From assembly GCF_006345805.1 (NCBI RefSeq), contig NC_043000.1, forward strand, positions 114,824,001-114,888,000: a DNA stretch of 64,000 bases, read 5' to 3'. This document shows, one piece after another, positions 18,712 to 51,600 of this stretch. How positions within the stretch are numbered: the first letter of the stretch is position 1; every line of letters starts with the position of its first letter. Below the pieces are notes generated by a model that had not been told where the DNA came from, did not search any database, and saw only the letters and a list, made by a program, of their open reading frames with translations. A program made the position numbers and the translations under genes. Origin of the DNA: Octopus sinensis. Taxonomy: Eukaryota.

Positions 18712-19142
18712 ACAAATCCAAATTAAGACTCCTACAGGCCCTAAGCACTTAAAAGATTTTGGTGCACCCACATATATGTAATACAAAATATAAACAATAA
18801 TAAACCATAAAATAAATTTCAATTTTTCAAAATGAAACAAAAACCAACAGTAAGATAGAAAATAGTGTTTATTTTTGTATATATTCCCACTTTATTTATA
18901 TTTGAAGAGTCTTCTATTTTTTTTTTATTGTGTGAAATCTTTGATCAGATCCTCAAAATTAATCTTAGGTGACACATCTGCATCTATACCTATTAAAGAT
19001 GAGACATACTAAATATTATTGTTGCAAGTTTAAAGTGATCTCCTTTGTGCCCTAAACCATTTATCATTTCCATGGTGCCCACTGCCACTTCCTTTGATGC
19101 CCTAAGCACATGCTTATTTTGCTTAGTGGTTAATCTAGCAAT
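18712..19142. mobile_element. Old non-autonomous DNA element; related end at ~42458-42842
   Basis: GCCCTAAGCAC near both ends; the terminus GCTTATTTTGCTTAGTGGTTAATC recurs inverted, split by a SINE, at 42.46-42.84 kb. Confidence 0.4.
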
Positions 19143-19378
19143 GAATACATGCGTGATCATCAATCTAATATATTTACTGCATATGTCCTTTTCACTTTTG
19201 TTTTTCCTGTTTTTTTTTATTTTTGATTTATATATTTTTTATTTTATATATTTTATTATTTTTGATATATATATATACACACACACACACACATATATAT
19301 ACGTAAATATATATATATACATATATAAATACATATATGTGCATATACATATATATATATATATATACATATATATAT

Positions 19379-19427
<49 letters not shown>

Positions 19428-19549
19428 CGTGACCGACCAGGCTATCAGATGTTGCTACACTTCGCTGGTCACACTGCGCTTCGCATTGTTTTTAGCCTTC
19501 AAATGACGCCCTCCCGCTAGCTAAGTGAGCAGACCAACATATATATATA

Positions 19550-19943
19550 TTTGCTTGTGAAGACATGTTGGGGCAAGCGAAATCGAAATCGAATTGAACC
19601 AGCCAGGATCCCTGGTCTGGTGGTACGTAAAAAGCACTATCCGACTCGTGGCCGACGCCAGCACCGCCTCGACTGGCTTCCGTGCCGGTGGCACATAAAA
19701 TACACCAATCTGACCGTGGCCGTTGCCAGCCCCGCCTGGCACCTGTGCAGGTGGCACGTAAAAAGCACCCACTACACTCACGGAGTGGTTGGCGTTAGGA
19801 AGGGCATCCAGCTGTAGAAACATTGCCAAATTAGACTGGAGCCTGGTGCAGCCTTCTGGCTTCCCAGAGCCCCGGTCGAACCGTCCAACCCATGCTAGCA
19901 TGGAGAACGGACGTTAAACGACGATGATGATGATGATGATGAT
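19550..19943 (+). mobile_element. Family C / 5'-truncated RTE 3'UTR (near-identical copy at 24060-24488; others ~7730-7905 -, 23618-23855 -, 28920-29180 -, 29990-30633 +, 38775-39130 -, 46127-46363 +, 47780-48017 +)
   Basis: TTGCTTGTGAAGACATGTTGGGGCAAGCGAAATCGAAATCG matches the 3'UTR of the RTE copy at 54.5-55.1 kb; ends CCATGCTAGCATGG...(GAT)n. Confidence 0.88.
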
Positions 19944-20359
19944 ATATATATATATATCATAGATGTGCTGCCTAGGTATGTAAGGTAGACACTGCCTACC
20001 TTGAATAAAATAGATCGATAGCAATATTTTCCTCTCATGGCAAAATGTGCATCTAATTCAATAAAATTATGAAGGTTACTCAGATTACTATGCATAAAAT
20101 GCAAAATATTTTATTCTTTTGTAAATTAGGTGACCATAATTCGCCTCTGCTTTTCAATCTTAGTATCTAAGCTTTGCATTGTAGTATTGTAGTAAACATG
20201 CTGTGTACACTCCTACAACATTGTTATCTTTATGTGCTATAAAGGCAGAAGTAAATCTGCCTTCAATTCAATCACATGCCTGTTTTGCTTATTTTTTATG
20301 TGTTTTACTGCATAAACATTACCAACTCCCTATGGTGAGTAATTTCTGACAGTACTTGC

Positions 20360-20419
<60 letters not shown>

Positions 20420-20437
20420 CATAAGAACACAAATGGG

Positions 20438-20539
20438 GTTTAAAATTCATGACAGTTGTTTCAGTAGAATTTAATTGATAAATTATTTATGGATTGCAAC
20501 ATAGCATAGAATCCACCATCTTCAGATAAAATTTTAAAC
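20438..20539 (-). ncRNA. Type I hammerhead ribozyme motif with intact core
   Basis: Minus strand: stem I GTTTAAAATTTTAT / CTGAAGA-T / stem II GGTGGATT...AATTCTACT / GAAA-CAACTG-TC / stem I' ATGAATTTTAAAC. Confidence 0.75.
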
Positions 20540-20579
20540 AGATATACAGAGGTGAGATAATATCTTGATGATGACACCT

Positions 20580-20678
20580 GTTTAAAAGTTTACCTAAAGA
20601 TAATGAATTGTAAGCTATGATATAATCTATAAACACATCAACAAAATTCAACTGAAACAGCTGTCGTAAATTTTAAAC
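20580..20678 (+). ncRNA. Type I hammerhead ribozyme motif with a G5A core mutation
   Basis: GTTTAAAAGTTTAC / CTAAAGA-T / ..TGAATT...AATTCA.. / GAAA-CAGCTG-TC / GTAAATTTTAAAC; palindromic short stem III ACAGCTGT. Confidence 0.65.
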
Positions 20679-20867
20679 CATATCTGTGTTCTTTTTATAT
20701 TTACACTGCACCTAGAACCAACATTAGCTGGATCTGTGGTTTAAATTGTATTGGTATTTACATATTTACAACATCCTACCAACAATTAATACTTTCATGG
20801 TTGTTTTACCTCATTGTAAACCCTGTTATTATATCTAGCCATTTCTGGCCCATGTTTGTATGTATGA

Positions 20868-21975
20868 ATGCCAATAGTACTTTACAAATATAGTAGCAAA
20901 TACAATAGCAAACAAACTCAATGCCCAAATAAAACCCAGGTAAATAGGTTACACACCTATACAAAAAGCTTAAGTAGAAATAGAAAAACATACCTCAATA
21001 ACATAGATACCTCTAGCAATATCGCGTGGTATATAATTCCCTTCAGAAAACAAATAATTTCCAATATACCAAAATTGTTCTATTCAACATTAGCTAAACA
21101 TTTTCCAAAAGATAGTAAATACCATGGAATATTTAATAAACATAGGTTTAGAGTAGCCCTTTCTAATAGCAAAAATCTAGCACAAATTATAGCAACACAC
21201 AACACTAGTAGATTAAGCAGTTTCCATATAAACAATAACAACATTAGTAACCAATATAATAATTATAGATTAATAAATAGCAACAATGCCAACATGAGCG
21301 AACAACCCATAAGTAACCCAATCAGGTATCAGGATACGAACTATGGTTTGACAACCGATAAAATAGAAGCTTCCTGATCAAACTCCTGCATTAGCCTGAA
21401 AGTGGAAAATTTGAATCCTAAAAAGTGCAGTACTCAGAATGTTGTCTATGTGGGAAAGAGTAATAGCTTAGAAGATAGACAGGAGAATTTAGAAATCACT
21501 TCTAGTGAAGCTGAAGTGGAAACTATTAATGGAAATAGTGGAACTATCAAATGCAATTTTGCAAGGAACAAGGTCTGTCTGCTTAACTCTAATTGTAGGT
21601 ATAAAAATATCATATACAGATGTAAGGTTACTTCAGAGAATAGGGAGTATTTCTATATAGGAACTAGCTCATGTTATATTAAACAAAGAATTGCCAATCA
21701 TTTAAATTCATTAAGATATAGGAACAAAATGAATACTACTAGCCTTAGTATACTAATTTGGGCACTAACAGATAGTAATAATGTATATTTGCTTGCGTAG
21801 GAAATAATTAGAAAGCTAAACCTTATAGAATAGGCAATAATAGATGTGCTCTTTGTGTGAAAGAAATGTACCAAATTTTCACTTCTAAATTTACTCTTAT
21901 AAACACAAAACAGGAACAGACTACAAGATGTCCACACTTGAGAAAATATATGTTTAAAATATTTAATAAACACAA
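20868..21975 (+). pseudogene. PLE GIY-YIG endonuclease frame (Naiad-like Cys pattern), no RT
   Basis: NIAWYIIPFRKQIISNIPKLF..LAKHFPKDSKYHGIFNKHRFRVALSNSKNLAQIIATHN; CNFARNKVCLLNSNCRYKNIIYRCKV..YFYIGTSSCYIKQRIANHLNSLRY; then (frameshift) KAKPYRIGNNRCALCVKEMYQI..INTKQEQTTRCPH. ORFs 20868-21377 and 21402-21800 are in frame across a TGA; TAG at 21798. Confidence 0.85.
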
Positions 21976-22541
21976 CTCACCAGCTATAGTAATTATGTTA
22001 GTTACAATAATGATTGTAATAATTAATAATATTTATACTATACTACTAATAATAATGTGGAAGCACATGGCCTAGTAGTTAGAGCAGCAGACTCGCAGTC
22101 GAGGGATCGTGGGTTCAAATCGCAGACCAGGCGATGAATAAACATGTTAAAACCACACTTCAACTGTAATACCAGTAGTGGTGATTATAAGAGGAGAATT
22201 CAATTTGATTTAAAAAGCAACACTACCACTTTCAGCTGAATGCTAACGCAAAATGCTTGTTTGAATAAGTTCACTTTGAAAATGTCGTGATGGACCCTTG
22301 ATGAAATTGCAGTGACTAGGATGCATAATTGCATACAGAGCAATGTGCAGTCGCTGCAGACAATACATATGTAGGTTAGTGTTATATATGGTGTAGAAAA
22401 CTTTGCACTAAAAAAGTTTCGAATGTGAATAAATTTATCTCCATTCTTCATTGTCAATTATATATATATATATATACATATATATATGATTGGATTTAGT
22501 TGACAGAAGCTGAAAGCAACCCAACATATGTGCATGTGTAC

Positions 22542-22581
<40 letters not shown>

Positions 22582-22582
22582 T

Positions 22583-23044
22583 TGAGGTGTGGTCTGTTAA
22601 GACCGTATAAGAGTACATTCACCGTTAGAATTCCCAAATTGCCAGTAGTATTCTTATGGTATGCTACCAATTCTAGTCTAAGGTATTCATCATGTGGGAA
22701 AATAAAAAGTAAAAAGTAAAAGAGTCAAAAGAAGAGTAAGTACGGTTAGGCAGCTTTTTAATCATTACAAATGTTTCGATACATAGAGATCCTCGTATAT
22801 ACAGAATTTAAATTAAATTATGCAACGATTTACCTGTATGAGAAGATCTATATGTGCCTCCCCAGGCAATACTCAGTTGCTGTCTCGGTAAGTAAATCTA
22901 GATTTTCATGCTACAACATTCACGGCTTCTTTAAATCCTGTATATACAAAGATCTGTATGTATCAAGACATTTGTAGTGATTAAAAAGCTGCCTAACCAT
23001 ACTTACTCTTCCTTTTGACTCTTTTTGACTCTTTTACTTTTTAC

Positions 23045-23046
<2 letters not shown>
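22583..23046. mobile_element. Tail plus foldback (arms within 22707-23046) in microsatellite; PLE-like relic
   Basis: AAGTAAAAAGTAAAAGAGTCAAAA..GAAGAGTAAGTACGGTTAGGCAGCTTTTTAATCATTACAAATGT is inverted at ~22968-23046. Confidence 0.65.
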
Positions 23047-23085
<39 letters not shown>

Positions 23086-23109
23086 AGATGTGGAACACGA
23101 GTTGTGATA

Positions 23110-23586
23110 TATAAAAAAAGGAAATGAAGAAAATGCTGACAAAATAATTTAAGTAAGGGAGAGTGTATTTAATTAGGTGAAAGTTCTTTTTTTAAACAAA
23201 AAAAGAGAAAAATTGGGTTAGAATACAATGTTCATTTTTTGTGAATGATTTCAGTGTATAAGAAAAAAAAGTAAGAGTCTTTTACAGTGTTCTGTTTCAG
23301 AGTAAGATATTTAGTAAAAGCGTGTAATATACAGTTTTTTGTGGAAAAGTTCAATGTCAGATTTCAGTGTAGGATAAAAAAAGTAAGAGTTTACCGGTTG
23401 CGCATTTGTTATGCTTATCAAAAGATATTTTGAGTGAGATAGAGTTCCTTTCTGATTGATTTTTTTCTCTTTTTTTCTCTATTGTATTCTAACCCAATTT
23501 TTCTCTTTTTTTGTTTAAAAAAAGAACTTTCACCTAATTACACTCTCCCTTACTTAAATTATTTTGTCAGCATTTTCTTCATTTCC

Positions 23587-23594
<8 letters not shown>
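23110..23594. mobile_element. Foldback with ~120-bp near-perfect arms in (TA)n; PLE-like relic
   Basis: AAAAAGGAAATGAAGAAAATGCTGAC...GGGTTAGAATACAAT / ATTGTATTCTAACCC...GTCAGCATTTTCTTCATTTCCTTTTT. Confidence 0.7.
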
Positions 23595-23621
<27 letters not shown>

Positions 23622-24499
23622 TCATCATCATTTAATGTCCACTTTCCATGCTAGCATGGGTTGGACGGTTCAACTGGGGTCTGGGAAGCCAGAAGGCTGC
23701 ACCAGGCCCAGTCTGATCTGGCAGTGTTTCTACAGCTGGATGCCCTTCCTAACGCCAACCACTCCGTGAGTGTAGTGGGTGCTTTTTACGTGCCACCGGC
23801 ACAGGTGCCAGACGAGGTTGGCAAACGGCTACGATCAAATGGTGCTTTTTACGTTTGCAGGTATAACTCTATAGTTCAGAAGTTTGTTTCCAGCCATGTA
23901 GTCTTAAGCTCAGTCCCACTGCTTGGTATCTTGAGCAAGTTTCTTCTTCTCTCTCTCCCTAAGCCAACCAAAACCTTGTGAATGAATTTAGTTGACAGAA
24001 GCTGAAAGCAACCCAGCATATGTGTGTGTGTATATACATACGTATATATATATATATACTCCAATGCGACCGTACGACAGGCACCCATGCCAACCCCCTT
24101 TGCTTGTGAAGACATGTTGGGGCAAGCGAAATCGAAATCGGATTGAACCAGCCAGGATCCTTGGTCTGGTGGTACGTAAAAAGCACTATCCGACTCGTGG
24201 CCGATGCCAGCACCGCCTCGACTGGCTTCCGTGCCGGTAGCACATAAAATACACCAATCTGACCGTGGCCGTTGCCAGCCCCGCCTGGCACCTGTGCAGG
24301 TGGCATGTAAAAAGCACCCACTACACTCACGGAGTGGTTGGCGTTAGGAAGGGCATCCAGCTGTAGAAACATTGCCAGATTAGACTGGAGCCTGGTGCAG
24401 CCTTCTGGCTTCCCAGAACCCTGGTCGAACCGTCCAACCCATGCTAGCATGGAGAACGGACGTTAAACGATGATGATGATGATGATGATATATATATAT

Positions 24500-24670
24500 A
24501 GTCAATTCAAATAAAGAAATAAAATTAACAGACAAGAGGATATGCACAAGGAATGTATTAGCTTGAAGCTCTGTAAAAAACGAGTTTTGACATTTCAAGT
24601 ATAGCTCTTCATTGGAAAAGAAAAAGGAAAAAGTCTAAAGAAAGAAAAGAAATCACCAACAGCATGTGTA
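24500..24670 (-). mobile_element. Short solo pLTR-like element with decayed hammerhead (24585-24619)
   Basis: Minus strand TTTT-CCAATGA-A-GAGC-TAT-ACTT-GAAA-TGTC-AAAA; flanked by TA repeats. Confidence 0.5.
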
Positions 24671-24759
24671 TACATATATACATGTGTGTGTGTGCATATA
24701 TGCATATACATAGCTTAGAAATGTCATATATGGGCATAGATAAGCTCACTCTGTAACTC

Positions 24760-26023
24760 TCAGGTCATCCCATAAGTTCTGTCCGATTTTACGTTTTTTA
24801 AAATTGAATGAAATTTAATAGTATTTTAGAATGTCTAATGGAATTAAAATTTATTTTCATACATTTGTGTACATTTAAACTAATTAAATATTATTTTACA
24901 GAATAATAGAATTAAGATTTCTTTGATTAAAACCCTTTCTAACATGGAAGTATCCAAAGAGCATTTAAAGCACATAATGCTTTATGAGTACAAGAAAAAG
25001 GAAACTCTGCAGCCGAAGCGACTCGAAACACACTCAGTTTATGGGAAAGAATGCTTGAATGAAAGAACTTGCAGAAGATAGTTTGCAAAATTCAGAAGTG
25101 GAGATTTCAGCCTTGAAGATGAAGATCGAACAGGACGTCCAATTGAGTTTGATGATAAATCCTGCATTATCAGTTGAAGAATTGGTAATAGAGCTTAGTT
25201 CAGACCATACAACTGTTCATCGTCATTTTCAACAACTTGGAAAGGTTCCTAAACTTGGAAAATGGGTGCCTCATGAATTGTCCGAAAGCAACCGCAAATC
25301 CTGAGTTGACATCTGCTCTTCTCTCCATTCTCGTGAACTCATTTCACCCATTTTGGATAGACTTGTGACTGATAACAAAAAAATGTATCTTCTATCGAAA
25401 TGTTAAATGTCGTAAATAGTGGCTTGGTAAAAGGGGAAAAGCTCAACCACAACCGAGAAGGGAACTTCATGGGAAAAAAGTTCTTCTCTCTACCTGGTGG
25501 GATTGCAAAGGCGTAATTCACTTTGAATTGTTACCACCTAATGCAACAATCAATGCTCAAGTCTACTGTCAGCAATTAGAGCGTTTGAACCAAGCTTTGA
25601 AGAAAAAAGACCCGCTTTAGTGAATTAAAAAGGAGTGATGTTTCATCAGGACAATGTGTGATCCCACACTGCAAAGATCACATCACAGAAGATCGAAGTG
25701 CTTGGTTGGGAAAAAATTCCTCATCCACTTTATTCTCCCGACCTTGCTCCTTCAGACTAGCATTTGTTTCGTAGTTTACAGAATCATTTGGGGTGACATA
25801 ACTCCTCGCAAGCCAGGAGGAGGTCGAAACTGACATTTCAGAGTTCTTCGTTTTGAAACCAAAAGAGTTTTACATTGAGGGGATTAAAAAGCTTGTAAAT
25901 AGATGGAAAGAAGTCATAGATAATTAGGGAAAGTACATTGATGATTAAATTTTGATTAAATGTAACATTTGATCACTTGTTTTCTTCTTTCAAAATTCAG
26001 ACAGAACTTATGGGATGACCTGA
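24760..26023 (+). mobile_element. Full-length mariner element (1264 bp)
   Basis: TIRs TCAGGTCATCCCATAAGTTCTGTC / GACAGAACTTATGGGATGACCTGA; TA on the right flank. Confidence 0.95.
24944..25948 (+). pseudogene. Mariner DD34D transposase pseudogene
   Basis: MEVSKEHLKHIMLYEY, GKWVPHELS, HQDN and YSPDLAPSD motifs; multiple stops and frameshifts. Confidence 0.93.
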
Positions 26024-48614: not shown

Positions 48615-51600
48615 CAAGGATTTGGTCGGCCCAAGTCTATAGTAGAAGACACTTGCCCAAGGTGCCATGCAGTGGGACTGAACCTGGAACCATGTGGTTG
48701 GTAAGCAAGCTACTTATCACACAGCCACTCCTGCACCTATAGTATGTAATGCATATATATATATATATATACACACACACATATATACGACGGGCTTCTT
48801 TCAGTTTCCGCCTACCAAATCCACTCACAAGGCTTTGGTCGGCCCGAGGCTATTAGTGGAAGTCACTTGCCCAAGGTGCCATGCAGTGGGACTGAACCCA
48901 GAACCATGTGGCTGGTAAGCAAGCTACTTACCACACACCCACTCCTACGCCTACACAATTTGTTGTTTGATCTTTACGATTGATCATAGTCCTTGCCTTT
49001 CCTACTCAAATGGTAGCACAGAGAATTTGCTTATATGGCAGTTAGTTAATGACTAATTACTGTTTTGGATAGCGAAATTAGTGTGTTGTACTTTAGACAG
49101 CTTGTCACTAATTAAATAATATACAGTTATGCACAACATAGCAATTAAACAATATATATTTATGTCCAGTGTAGCATGAATCAGATACACCAGATTAAAT
49201 TCAAGCATTTTTAGAAAGCTTTTGTTCTGAAATTAATTATATGTAATTGCATATCTACATATATACATAAACTAGGATTTTCAGAAAGAGAAATTGAGTG
49301 GCTAATTCGTACATTACAAGTCCAATCTGTGAGTGGAACAGTAAAAATATGCAAAACTTTTCTTAAGTTTGAAATGTGAATTTATCTGTGTTAACTACTT
49401 CCTAAAGATGGGGCCGTGTATCTTTGTTAGAAACTGGCTCCCTCCTCAGTGGAAGATTTATAATAATTGAAAAATGGAAGAGACATACATATAAACATGC
49501 ATGCATACATTCATACATACTTTACATACATAACAACATAAATGATATATAAACATATGCATATATACATACATATATGTACATACCTACATCTATATAT
49601 ATACATGCATATATGGGTACAAGACATCAAAAAAACGTTGAACACAATGAGAAACGAAAACATAAAAGCAAAAACATGGAAATGAACTTTTTTTCAAACA
49701 ACAAAAAAAGCAGAGTACAAGACATACAACACAAGGAATATTCCTCTTCTTCAGTTGTCCCTGTTTCATCTACTTCGCGTTTAGAAGGTAAGGACAAAAC
49801 GTAACTTCATTGAAACAGTCCTTCCCACAAAGCAAATTTTGGATTTTTTGCGTAGGGGTAAAAGTGGTAACAAGAACAGGACAATAAAAACAATACAAAT
49901 AAAAACAGTGAAGGACAGGACAAGGAGAATAACACAGTAAAAACAAATGATGAGGGTTGTTAAGCCAAGATGATGGAAAAATTATTTTGAACGTATTGAA
50001 GAAACAGCTTATGAGAAGGACAGGATAAGCCATCTTGACTCGCTGAAGATAGCAGTCGGAAAGATATATACATATATGTGAGTGTGTGTATGGAAAAAAA
50101 TATTAAAATGAAAATTATTAATATGAAATTGCTTTTTTTAAAGCAGATTAACACAAAATGTCATGAAAGGAAGTCTTTTGTCTCTGCTTTTCAAACACAC
50201 ATTATAAGAAAATTTGTATAGGAATACTTTGTAACAGGTGCATTTGAAAAGCTCAGAGCTGCAGAAAGCGCCTAAACAAATACTTCCCTCCATCAGATGT
50301 GTGTTAATCAGATTCTTCCAAATTCAGTGGAATTATTAGAATAGTGGGTGGAGTGTCATGTAAAACTGTCCTGCCTTTTTGTGCTTGGAATGCAACGTCT
50401 GTGCCAGCAGGCGCCAAGCTGCATTAGCCTTTGTCATTCTTCTGGATAACATTGGTACCATAATGAGGCATATATTTATGGGTGTGGGGAATAGTGTGTC
50501 TTCTGTAAATAAAAAAAAAAAAGAAAAAACATCTTGCTCCAGCCTATACTTTAGAGGGGAACTTTTCAGGTGTGAATTCATGGTCATACAAGACTCCAGA
50601 GATAGTCTGAAGAACTATGATTCTGTTCTTTGATTGAATTCTTCTGTCCTGGTCTGAGATTATTTATTTAAGGCTTTCCTCATTTTTAAAGAGATCAAAA
50701 GCTTTCCTGCCTTTAGAATTGAAAAAATTGAGGTGATAACGGTGTAGGGGGAGGGAGATATTCCCATATGAACAGAAGCGGGAGAGAAGGGAGATGAAAG
50801 AGCTTTGGTGGAGAGCTGTGATGGTAAGGGTGATAGTTGTAATGGTGGTGGCAGTGGTGTTGGTGGTTATGCTGCTGCTGCTACTGCTACTGGTAGTTTC
50901 ACTGTCACATGTTGACATATTGACATAAGATTTTTAAGTGTGTAGGGGTTTGGCAAGTGAGATATATTTAGTGGTGATGGTCGTGGTAATAGTAGAGAGG
51001 CAATGAGTGTTGTTTGTAATTGTTATGGTGGTGGGGGGTATTGATGGTGGAGTTAAAAAATGGTAGTGGGTGGGGTGGGAACCATTATGAAGGAGTTACT
51101 TGTGGTGGCAGTGGTGGTGGTGGTGGTTATGGAAAATGATTGTAAAAGTTGTCATGGCAGTGGTGATGATGATGACAATGATAGTGGTGGTGGTGTCAGA
51201 TGGTGAGAATGGACTTGTGTGTGACGATGGACAGGATGATAGCAGTGCCCCCCTCTTGTACCCTATCACCCTCCCCCCCAGTAACATCTAGCCTCGGTAC
51301 GGGGAGGGAAGAAGAAAGCATGTAAATTATTGCAAAAATTATGATGGAATCCATTTTACATTGTTGAGAAGGGAAAAGACAGAAAATTTTGTGTAAAGTT
51401 CGTTAAGTGTAGATTAACTTAAAACAGCTTCCCAGCAAAAATAGCTGATCTCAGAGTTAATCTGCTGCTGAGTTTCTCAATGTTTTTGACTTTGTGGAAC
51501 ATTGCGGACCAAGTAGAAAATTACTGACATACTTTGCATGGAATGTTGACATATATGAAAGGCACAAACATGGCTGTGTGGTGAGAAGTTTGCTTCCAAC

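Follow-up and report, generated by a model that had tools for sequence, protein, structure and literature searches.

The 64-kb window, the whole stretch of Octopus sinensis DNA that was analysed, contains an imperfect inverted repeat of ~271 bp at 20423-20693, whose arms (20423-20541 and 20578-20693) are separated by 36 nt and pair in two blocks, 20423-20479 with 20637-20693 (57 nt, 84% complementarity) and 20475-20541 with 20578-20644 (67 nt, 75% complementarity). Each arm belongs to a copy of a dispersed repeat that we refer to as family A. The minus arm (20423-20541, minus strand) is the 3' 119 nt of one copy and terminates at the tail-less 3' terminus of the family, adjoining a (TA)n microsatellite (20360-20422, no strand) that forms the left flank and is the likely target site; the 36 nt at 20542-20577 are the upstream part of the same minus-strand copy, family A sequence lying 5' of the arm. 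By alignment, the minus and plus copies meet head to head at 20577/20578, the plus copy beginning 2 nt before its own arm (20578-20693, plus strand). The minus copy, ending at (TA)n, has no tail, and the plus copy has one (20694-20868, plus strand), an optional 3' extension of ~203 nt in family A that here ends ~30 nt short, at the start of element B (20869-22056, plus strand), a 5'-truncated copy of a different repeat whose GIY-YIG endonuclease frame has decayed. Rfam matches resembling microRNAs at 20353-20441 (mir-297, mir-1277, mir-466 and others) fall far below their gathering scores and were set aside as artefacts of the TA repeat.

The GIY-YIG domain of element B is recognized by PF01541 (E 1.4e-6; 29 bits, the cutoff being 22.6), and its frame is broken by a stop codon at 21375-21377 and changes near 21800. 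Element B is a copy of a repeat of ~1.4-1.9 kb, 5'-truncated relative to its relatives, with no RT domain in the copies seen, and by eye part of it resembles the RT-to-endonuclease linker or C-terminal part of Hydra/Penelope-type PLE proteins. Sequence associated with it may extend to ~22487 and a second (TA)n near 22460. When the GIY-YIG frame was compared with longer proteins, 0 of the 327 candidates scored, and the protein atlas gave scores of at most 0.86. The junction of the family A tail with element B could reflect either two insertions or one chimeric insertion. A tRNA-like GC-rich stretch near 22066-22135 was not confirmed, ARAGORN having found no tRNA in 19000-25000. Further out, the long open frames of 19521-19913 recur at 23655-24462 on both strands, which indicates that an abundant short repeat lies to either side of the locus, and an open frame at 25059-25304 resembles by eye the DNA-binding N-terminus of transposases of the mariner type, domains akin to which also occur in the flanks of related loci.

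Read along the minus strand, the minus arm presents in order one strand of helix I, CUGAAGA, a U, GGUGGA, an insert of ~44 nt, UCUACU, GAAA, CAACUG, UC and the helix I complement. Its core runs from C3 at 20525 to A9 at 20519, with G12 to A14 at 20461-20459 and C17 at 20451; every core position is kept, helix II has 6 bp and helix I 13 bp. The cleavage site predicted from the sequence lies on the minus strand between C17 (20451) and A1.1 (20450). The plus arm has the core CUAAAGA, with G5>A at 20596, and its helix II is unpaired, a 5' strand AAUGAA facing UCAACU; it retains GAAA at 20654-20657, the perfect palindrome ACAGCUGU and then UC, with C17 at 20665. After GAAA the plus arm reads CAGCUG and the minus arm CAACUG. 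Of these two arms only the plus arm has an intact loop 3 palindrome, the AACU of the minus arm giving two central mismatches in a dimer helix III, and the G10.1-C11.1 pair has decayed to G.U in the minus arm and to A-U in the plus arm. Helix I is the same in both, 13 bp with one bulged U. The minus-arm motif is thus intact and the plus-arm motif dead. The sequence features given in the initial annotation of this locus are all present, including the inverted repeat of ~270 bp, the stem I of ~13 bp in each arm, the intact CUGAAGA of the minus copy, the CUAAAGA and palindrome of the plus copy, and a predicted cut between 20451 and 20450, which agrees exactly with ours.

A relaxed custom descriptor, consisting of CUGANGA, an optional bulge, 4 bp or more of helix II, GAAA, a helix III that is short, UH and 5 bp or more of helix I, and tolerating up to ~80 nt between the core halves, had a single match on the two strands of the window, the minus arm, and one match in total when the window was shuffled 200 times under a first-order Markov model (mean 0.005). 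Hammerhead covariance models had also been suggested as a check, and here the curated Rfam models found no hammerhead: there were no matches at gathering score in the whole window, 18 matches but 0 hammerheads at E<=10 on 20350-20760, and no matches on 20 related loci (63,606 bases). The likely cause of this miss is that helix II has an insert of 44 nt and is preceded by a bulged U. A covariance model of the family (R1) gives the minus arm 104 bits, which it does by construction, and otherwise found in the window only the two arms; one further weak match, at 49194-49303 (E 0.36), was discarded on inspection of the alignment, which consists of unrelated AT-rich sequence. The relaxed descriptor detected no hammerhead in element B, either in the window or in nine other copies.

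A search of the animal's own genome (2.7 Gb, 13,516 contigs) with 20423-20693 gave at least 525 first-look candidates, and scoring the best 40 of these 525 yielded 84 matches with identities of 69-85%. The family majority was derived from 44 arms, comprising 42 of the 53 arm matches of at least 100 nt together with the two arms of the window; an earlier alignment held 32 arms. Among the 44, the majority nucleotides of the core are C3 (39 copies), U4 (39), G5 (39), A6 (41), G8 (41), A9 (43), G12 (31, with A in 12 copies at a CpG site), A13 (43), A14 (44), A15.1 (41) and U16.1 (41), while position 17 is C in 26, U in 11, A in 6 and G in 1. The majority is therefore canonical at every position (n=44), and the whole core is intact in 17 of the 44. 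The two least conserved places, 11.1/12 and 17/1.1, coincide with CpG sites of the majority sequence, and the variants found there are the TG/CA forms that CpG decay produces. A bulged U stands between A9 and G10.1 in 39/44 copies, and the 10.1-11.1 pair, among 38 copies, is GC in 21, GU in 9 and AU in 2. The majority helix II consists of 6 bp, an internal loop and a second tier of 6 bp, with an insert of ~44 nt (56 nt from A9 to G12); helix III has 2 bp and a palindromic AGCU loop, and helix I has 13 bp with one bulged U. Judged from these alignments, the majority sequence carries a type I hammerhead architecture, whose palindromic helix III loop implies action as a dimer.

The sense unit of family A starts ~250 nt upstream of the arm, with a 5' boundary near L009:1277, giving a non-palindromic unit of ~366 nt. 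Many copies end at a proximal 3' terminus 36 nt past the predicted cut, and a second fixed 3' terminus lies ~203 nt further on, at the end of the tail. By eye, 11 of 32 arms continue into the tail and the others end at the proximal terminus, mostly followed by a microsatellite; both tail-end motifs are present in 15/29 tail copies, and a microsatellite run follows within 45 nt in 7 of those 15. The 5' ends are variable and often abut microsatellites. At 24 other loci, opposed arms were found at 10, with junctions 22 to 121 nt apart, and solo arms at 14, while arms in tandem in the same orientation, by which retrozymes are recognized, were found at none (0/24, few loci for so large a family). 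The two arms of a pair hold the same 3' part of the element, and in the inverted pairs examined the tail is one-sided. The marks of PLE-type insertion, namely an inverted 5'-truncated copy, a one-sided tail, variable 5' truncation and a microsatellite target, are all present. The flanks of 82 loci contain 125 reading frames of at least 120 aa, of which a single one, at L022, has an RT domain; as a partner it was rejected, lying beyond the element terminus and a TA run/microsatellite and looking like an unrelated LINE. Other Pfam domains in the flanking frames are a mariner-type transposase (Transposase_1) and an HTH domain (HTH_48). An RT and GIY-YIG element bearing a family A arm was found neither in the 82-locus flanks nor in the consensus sequences available from PMC8557442, and six family A motifs are absent from those supplement consensus sequences, where line breaks could hide a match.

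Family A is most readily compared with the minimal hammerheads of PLE pseudo-LTRs (Cervera & de la Pena 2014, PMC4209133), which occur in thousands of dispersed copies. An extra nucleotide after position 9, a G10.1-C11.1 pair, a palindromic helix III (15.2-16.2 and loop 3) and a long helix II are recurrent traits of that class and make chance unlikely (PMC4209133); the initial annotation had not selected for them. With it family A shares the type I topology, the G10.1-C11.1 pair with one nucleotide left unpaired between it and A9, the length of helix II, a helix III of 2 bp whose palindromic loop points to dimers, and the distribution as dispersed, mostly truncated copies with opposite-strand pairs; "dual min-HHRs" ~100-700 bp apart on opposite strands have already been published (PMC4209133). 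The kinship with short-stem-III, dimer-style PLE hammerheads proposed from the sequence at first sight is supported by the traits of the family majority. Family A differs from that class in its helix II insert of ~44 nt with a second 6-bp tier, in a helix I of 13 bp compared with the published 4-5 bp, in the lack of an RT/EN-coding carrier in the 82-locus flanks and in being missed by the Rfam models and by expectations of short loops.

Likenesses extend to the mode of insertion. Craig et al. 2021 (PMC8557442) describe PLE insertions in which a 5'-truncated copy is inverted, one end bears a tail and the target is AT-rich or (TA)n sequence, and a PLE protein has been found to cleave and extend both DNA strands, with reverse transcription from two internal sites (Frangieh et al. 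2024, PMC11167929). Family A has in common with PLE insertions the head-to-head 5'-truncated copies, the one-end tail, the microsatellite targets and a choice of two 3' termini that both lie past the ribozyme cut site, and departs from them in its longer tail (~203 nt, the published one being 30-40 bp) and in being non-coding (~366 nt plus tail). Its dependence on a PLE enzyme is putative. Metazoan non-LTR retrozymes (Cervera & de la Pena 2020, PMC7229834) are likewise short non-autonomous non-coding elements with a type I hammerhead, but they are defined by tandem arrays and circular RNAs, whereas family A at 24 loci has solo and opposed copies only, with no same-orientation tandem; retrozyme-like elements have been argued, in the preprint of Li, Clavereau & Pollet 2026 (10.64898/2026.07.22.740005), to derive from PLE pseudo-LTRs. 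In the hammerhead table of the PMC8557442 supplement, "ctgaagat" is the printed core of Hydra-1_cRog and Penelope-5_HM, the Hydra-1_oBim hammerhead has the core "ctgaagag", a 7-bp helix II with an 8-nt loop and a (TA)n preference, and Naiad_Ovul is listed as "HHR_half_core" with a (TA)n preference, half_core separations being 35-50 nt. The octopus PLEs of that source (Hydra-1_oBim and Naiad_Ovul) therefore resemble family A in CUGAAGA plus one extra nucleotide, in (TA)n targets and in distant core halves ("half_core"), but in the sequences available there have no sequence match to it.

The initial annotation had read conserved stems with divergent loops as selection on structure, and this finds no support in the copies. 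Across 38 copies the structure pairs 87.7% of cells, compared with 87.9% in shuffles; with the partners slid the figure falls to 33.5-45.3%, a comparison biased towards the structure by its derivation from the same sequences. Covariation is 0.124 against 0.121 in shuffles and is reached by 158/500 of these, the 38 copies being those of one neutrally decaying family, which cannot show covariation. Divergence from the majority in the same 38 copies is 11.1% for stems, 11.0% for the helix II insert and 13.5% for other unpaired columns. That of the core is 9.7%, or 5.5% excluding CpG columns, a value that rests on 11 mostly A/U columns and is not taken as constraint. Between the two arms of the window, 13/65 stem and core columns differ and 12/43 unpaired columns (Fisher p = 0.36). 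With neither covariation nor excess pairing, the structure rests on one ancestral sequence. As far as the alignments tell, the hammerhead structure is a property of the family A ancestor, from which the copies appear to decay neutrally.

A transcript spanning both arms has a predicted hairpin of -115.3 kcal/mol (z = -16), which competes with either hammerhead fold. Folded singly, five arms do not exceed their shuffles in stability (z = -1.35 to +0.67), and in the same number of arms a fold compatible with the hammerhead is 1.9-6.8 kcal/mol less favourable than the minimum. The helix II insert of ~44 nt is unusual, and loop-loop contacts are not evident. Traces of cutting were sought in the ends of the copies. 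Of 15 tail-bearing copies with a window match beginning within the arm or beyond it, 3 (L044, L058 and L042) start 1-5 nt past the predicted cut; one of them, L044, folds back symmetrically at precisely the predicted site. The palindrome expected of such a fold-back occurs genome-wide at 1 place compared with 0 for the control at <=2 mismatches, and at 17 compared with 15 at <=3. A genomic footprint of cutting in vivo is therefore not supported. The one place found at <=2 mismatches, L044/L097 (G000:C10:70813674-70813699), has both arms beginning at the first nucleotide past the predicted cut, an arrangement as expected if a cleaved RNA were copied to its 5' end on both strands.

An indication of the fate of transcripts comes from a contig of 1645 nt in run X1, which covers 20467-22107. 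The run was labelled RNA by guess, and its 95 Mb of contigs and depth of 23.6 at the locus make RNA its likely identity. This contig differs from the assembly by A>G at 20518, 20524, 20597, 20603 and 20675, all within the inverted repeat, where 5 of 91 A's are changed compared with 0 of 647 outside it (p = 2.6e-5); G is the 5' neighbour at 0/5 of the sites. It also has a C>T at 20516 within the repeat and a single C>T in the other 1414 nt. Two DNA contigs of X3, at 20443-20539 and 20517-21018, match the assembly with 0 differences and so have A at each of the five sites, as do those of X4 at two of the five. The cluster of A>G changes hints at possible A-to-I editing by ADAR of a hairpin RNA transcribed from the plus strand, on which the dead copy alone is in sense orientation. 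However, X1 differs from the assembly by a TGTA indel in addition to its C>T changes (2-3), and with this indel marking it as another individual, the A>G changes could be alleles.

We consider it probable that the locus consists of two 5'-truncated, head-to-head copies of a dispersed non-coding hammerhead retroelement, likely deposited together by a PLE-type insertion into (TA)n. A PLE enzyme would nick both DNA strands and prime reverse transcription of the element RNA on each, and two cDNAs, one begun at the tail-less site and the other at the tail site, would meet head to head, which would explain why the ribozymes face apart. In the master element, the hammerhead would have cut a precursor RNA at a point 36 nt ahead of the proximal 3' terminus, acting as a dimer or with protein assistance in all probability. 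At the present, old locus the motif is probably inert as a ribozyme; a plus-strand transcript over both arms would fold into a long hairpin, one that is apparently A-to-I edited. In other respects the locus is an ordinary worn relic, with one arm mutated and cutting only predicted. A bolder version, in which the two-tier helix II hammerhead works with the assistance of protein, is of a design that escapes both Rfam models and published descriptors, and marks an uncatalogued, microsatellite-targeting, PLE-dependent non-autonomous family that seeds transcribed and edited hairpins, strikes us as doubtful.

That two working hammerheads, one per strand, self-process their transcripts and may cut a host intron RNA, with selection keeping the stems, is very unlikely. 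The minus arm does have its full core, a 6-bp helix II and a 13-bp helix I, and a contig from a probable RNA run spans the locus, but the plus arm has lost G5 (G5>A) together with its helix II, the AACU of minus-arm loop 3 would put two central mismatches into a dimer helix III, stems and loops decay alike with covariation absent, and the both-arm hairpin is far more stable than either hammerhead fold. Published PLE hammerheads, for their part, show poor cleavage in vitro or depend on protein (PMC4209133, PMC11167929). The idea that transcripts of either strand are self-processed is therefore not sustained: besides the missing G5 and the competing hairpin of -115.3 kcal/mol, the changes in the sole RNA-like contig found point to the plus strand, where the only sense copy is the dead one.

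Mobility by other means is also improbable, to differing degrees. A MITE whose terminal inverted repeats contain hammerhead-like words by coincidence would account for the 271-bp unit with inverted arms of ~118 nt in an AT-rich context, for five other loci (L002-L005 and L022) that match all 271 bases, and for the identical 22-nt inter-arm gap of L002 and L003. It would not account for solo arms at 14/24 loci, for 5' ends that are variable and junctions that differ (22 to 121 nt) where fixed termini are expected, or for a ~366-nt non-palindromic unit with an asymmetric tail at one end only, and a full hammerhead architecture with PLE-specific extras is unlikely to arise by chance; we regard this origin as highly improbable. 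Somewhat less so, if still quite unlikely, is a short retroposon moved by a LINE RT, its pairs arising via twin priming and its hammerhead genuine yet without a part in mobility. The flanks of 82 loci yielded no PLE partner, the sole RT frame near a copy looks LINE-like, though unrelated, and 5' truncation is also seen in LINE-dependent elements. Twin priming in L1 and other LINEs yields adjacent, non-overlapping segments, however, and the paired arms of family A, which carry the same 3' terminal part and each start at a family 3' terminus, are unlike its products. The two alternative 3' termini, the one-sided tail and the microsatellites on both flanks fit the published marks of PLEs, and the neighbouring element, of GIY-YIG type, shares the target habit.

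If the locus arose by PLE-type insertion, the "twin divergent ribozyme" is a by-product of that insertion and not a separate device. Family A adds a hammerhead variant with a long two-tier helix II insert that curated models miss, and counts of PLE hammerheads in such genomes are on that account probably too low. The known picture of the PLE hammerhead class is otherwise unchanged by family A, the long two-tier helix II being its one unusual trait. Should the A>G cluster prove to be editing, the fold-backs of family A supply edited double-stranded RNA in this animal. A last observation concerns the start of helix II, where A9, the bulged U and G10.1 form an AUG (20519-20517, minus strand, and also in the family majority). 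The reading frame of an Anolis PLE begins at the equivalent AUG (PMC11167929), and in family A the frame from this AUG stops after six codons.
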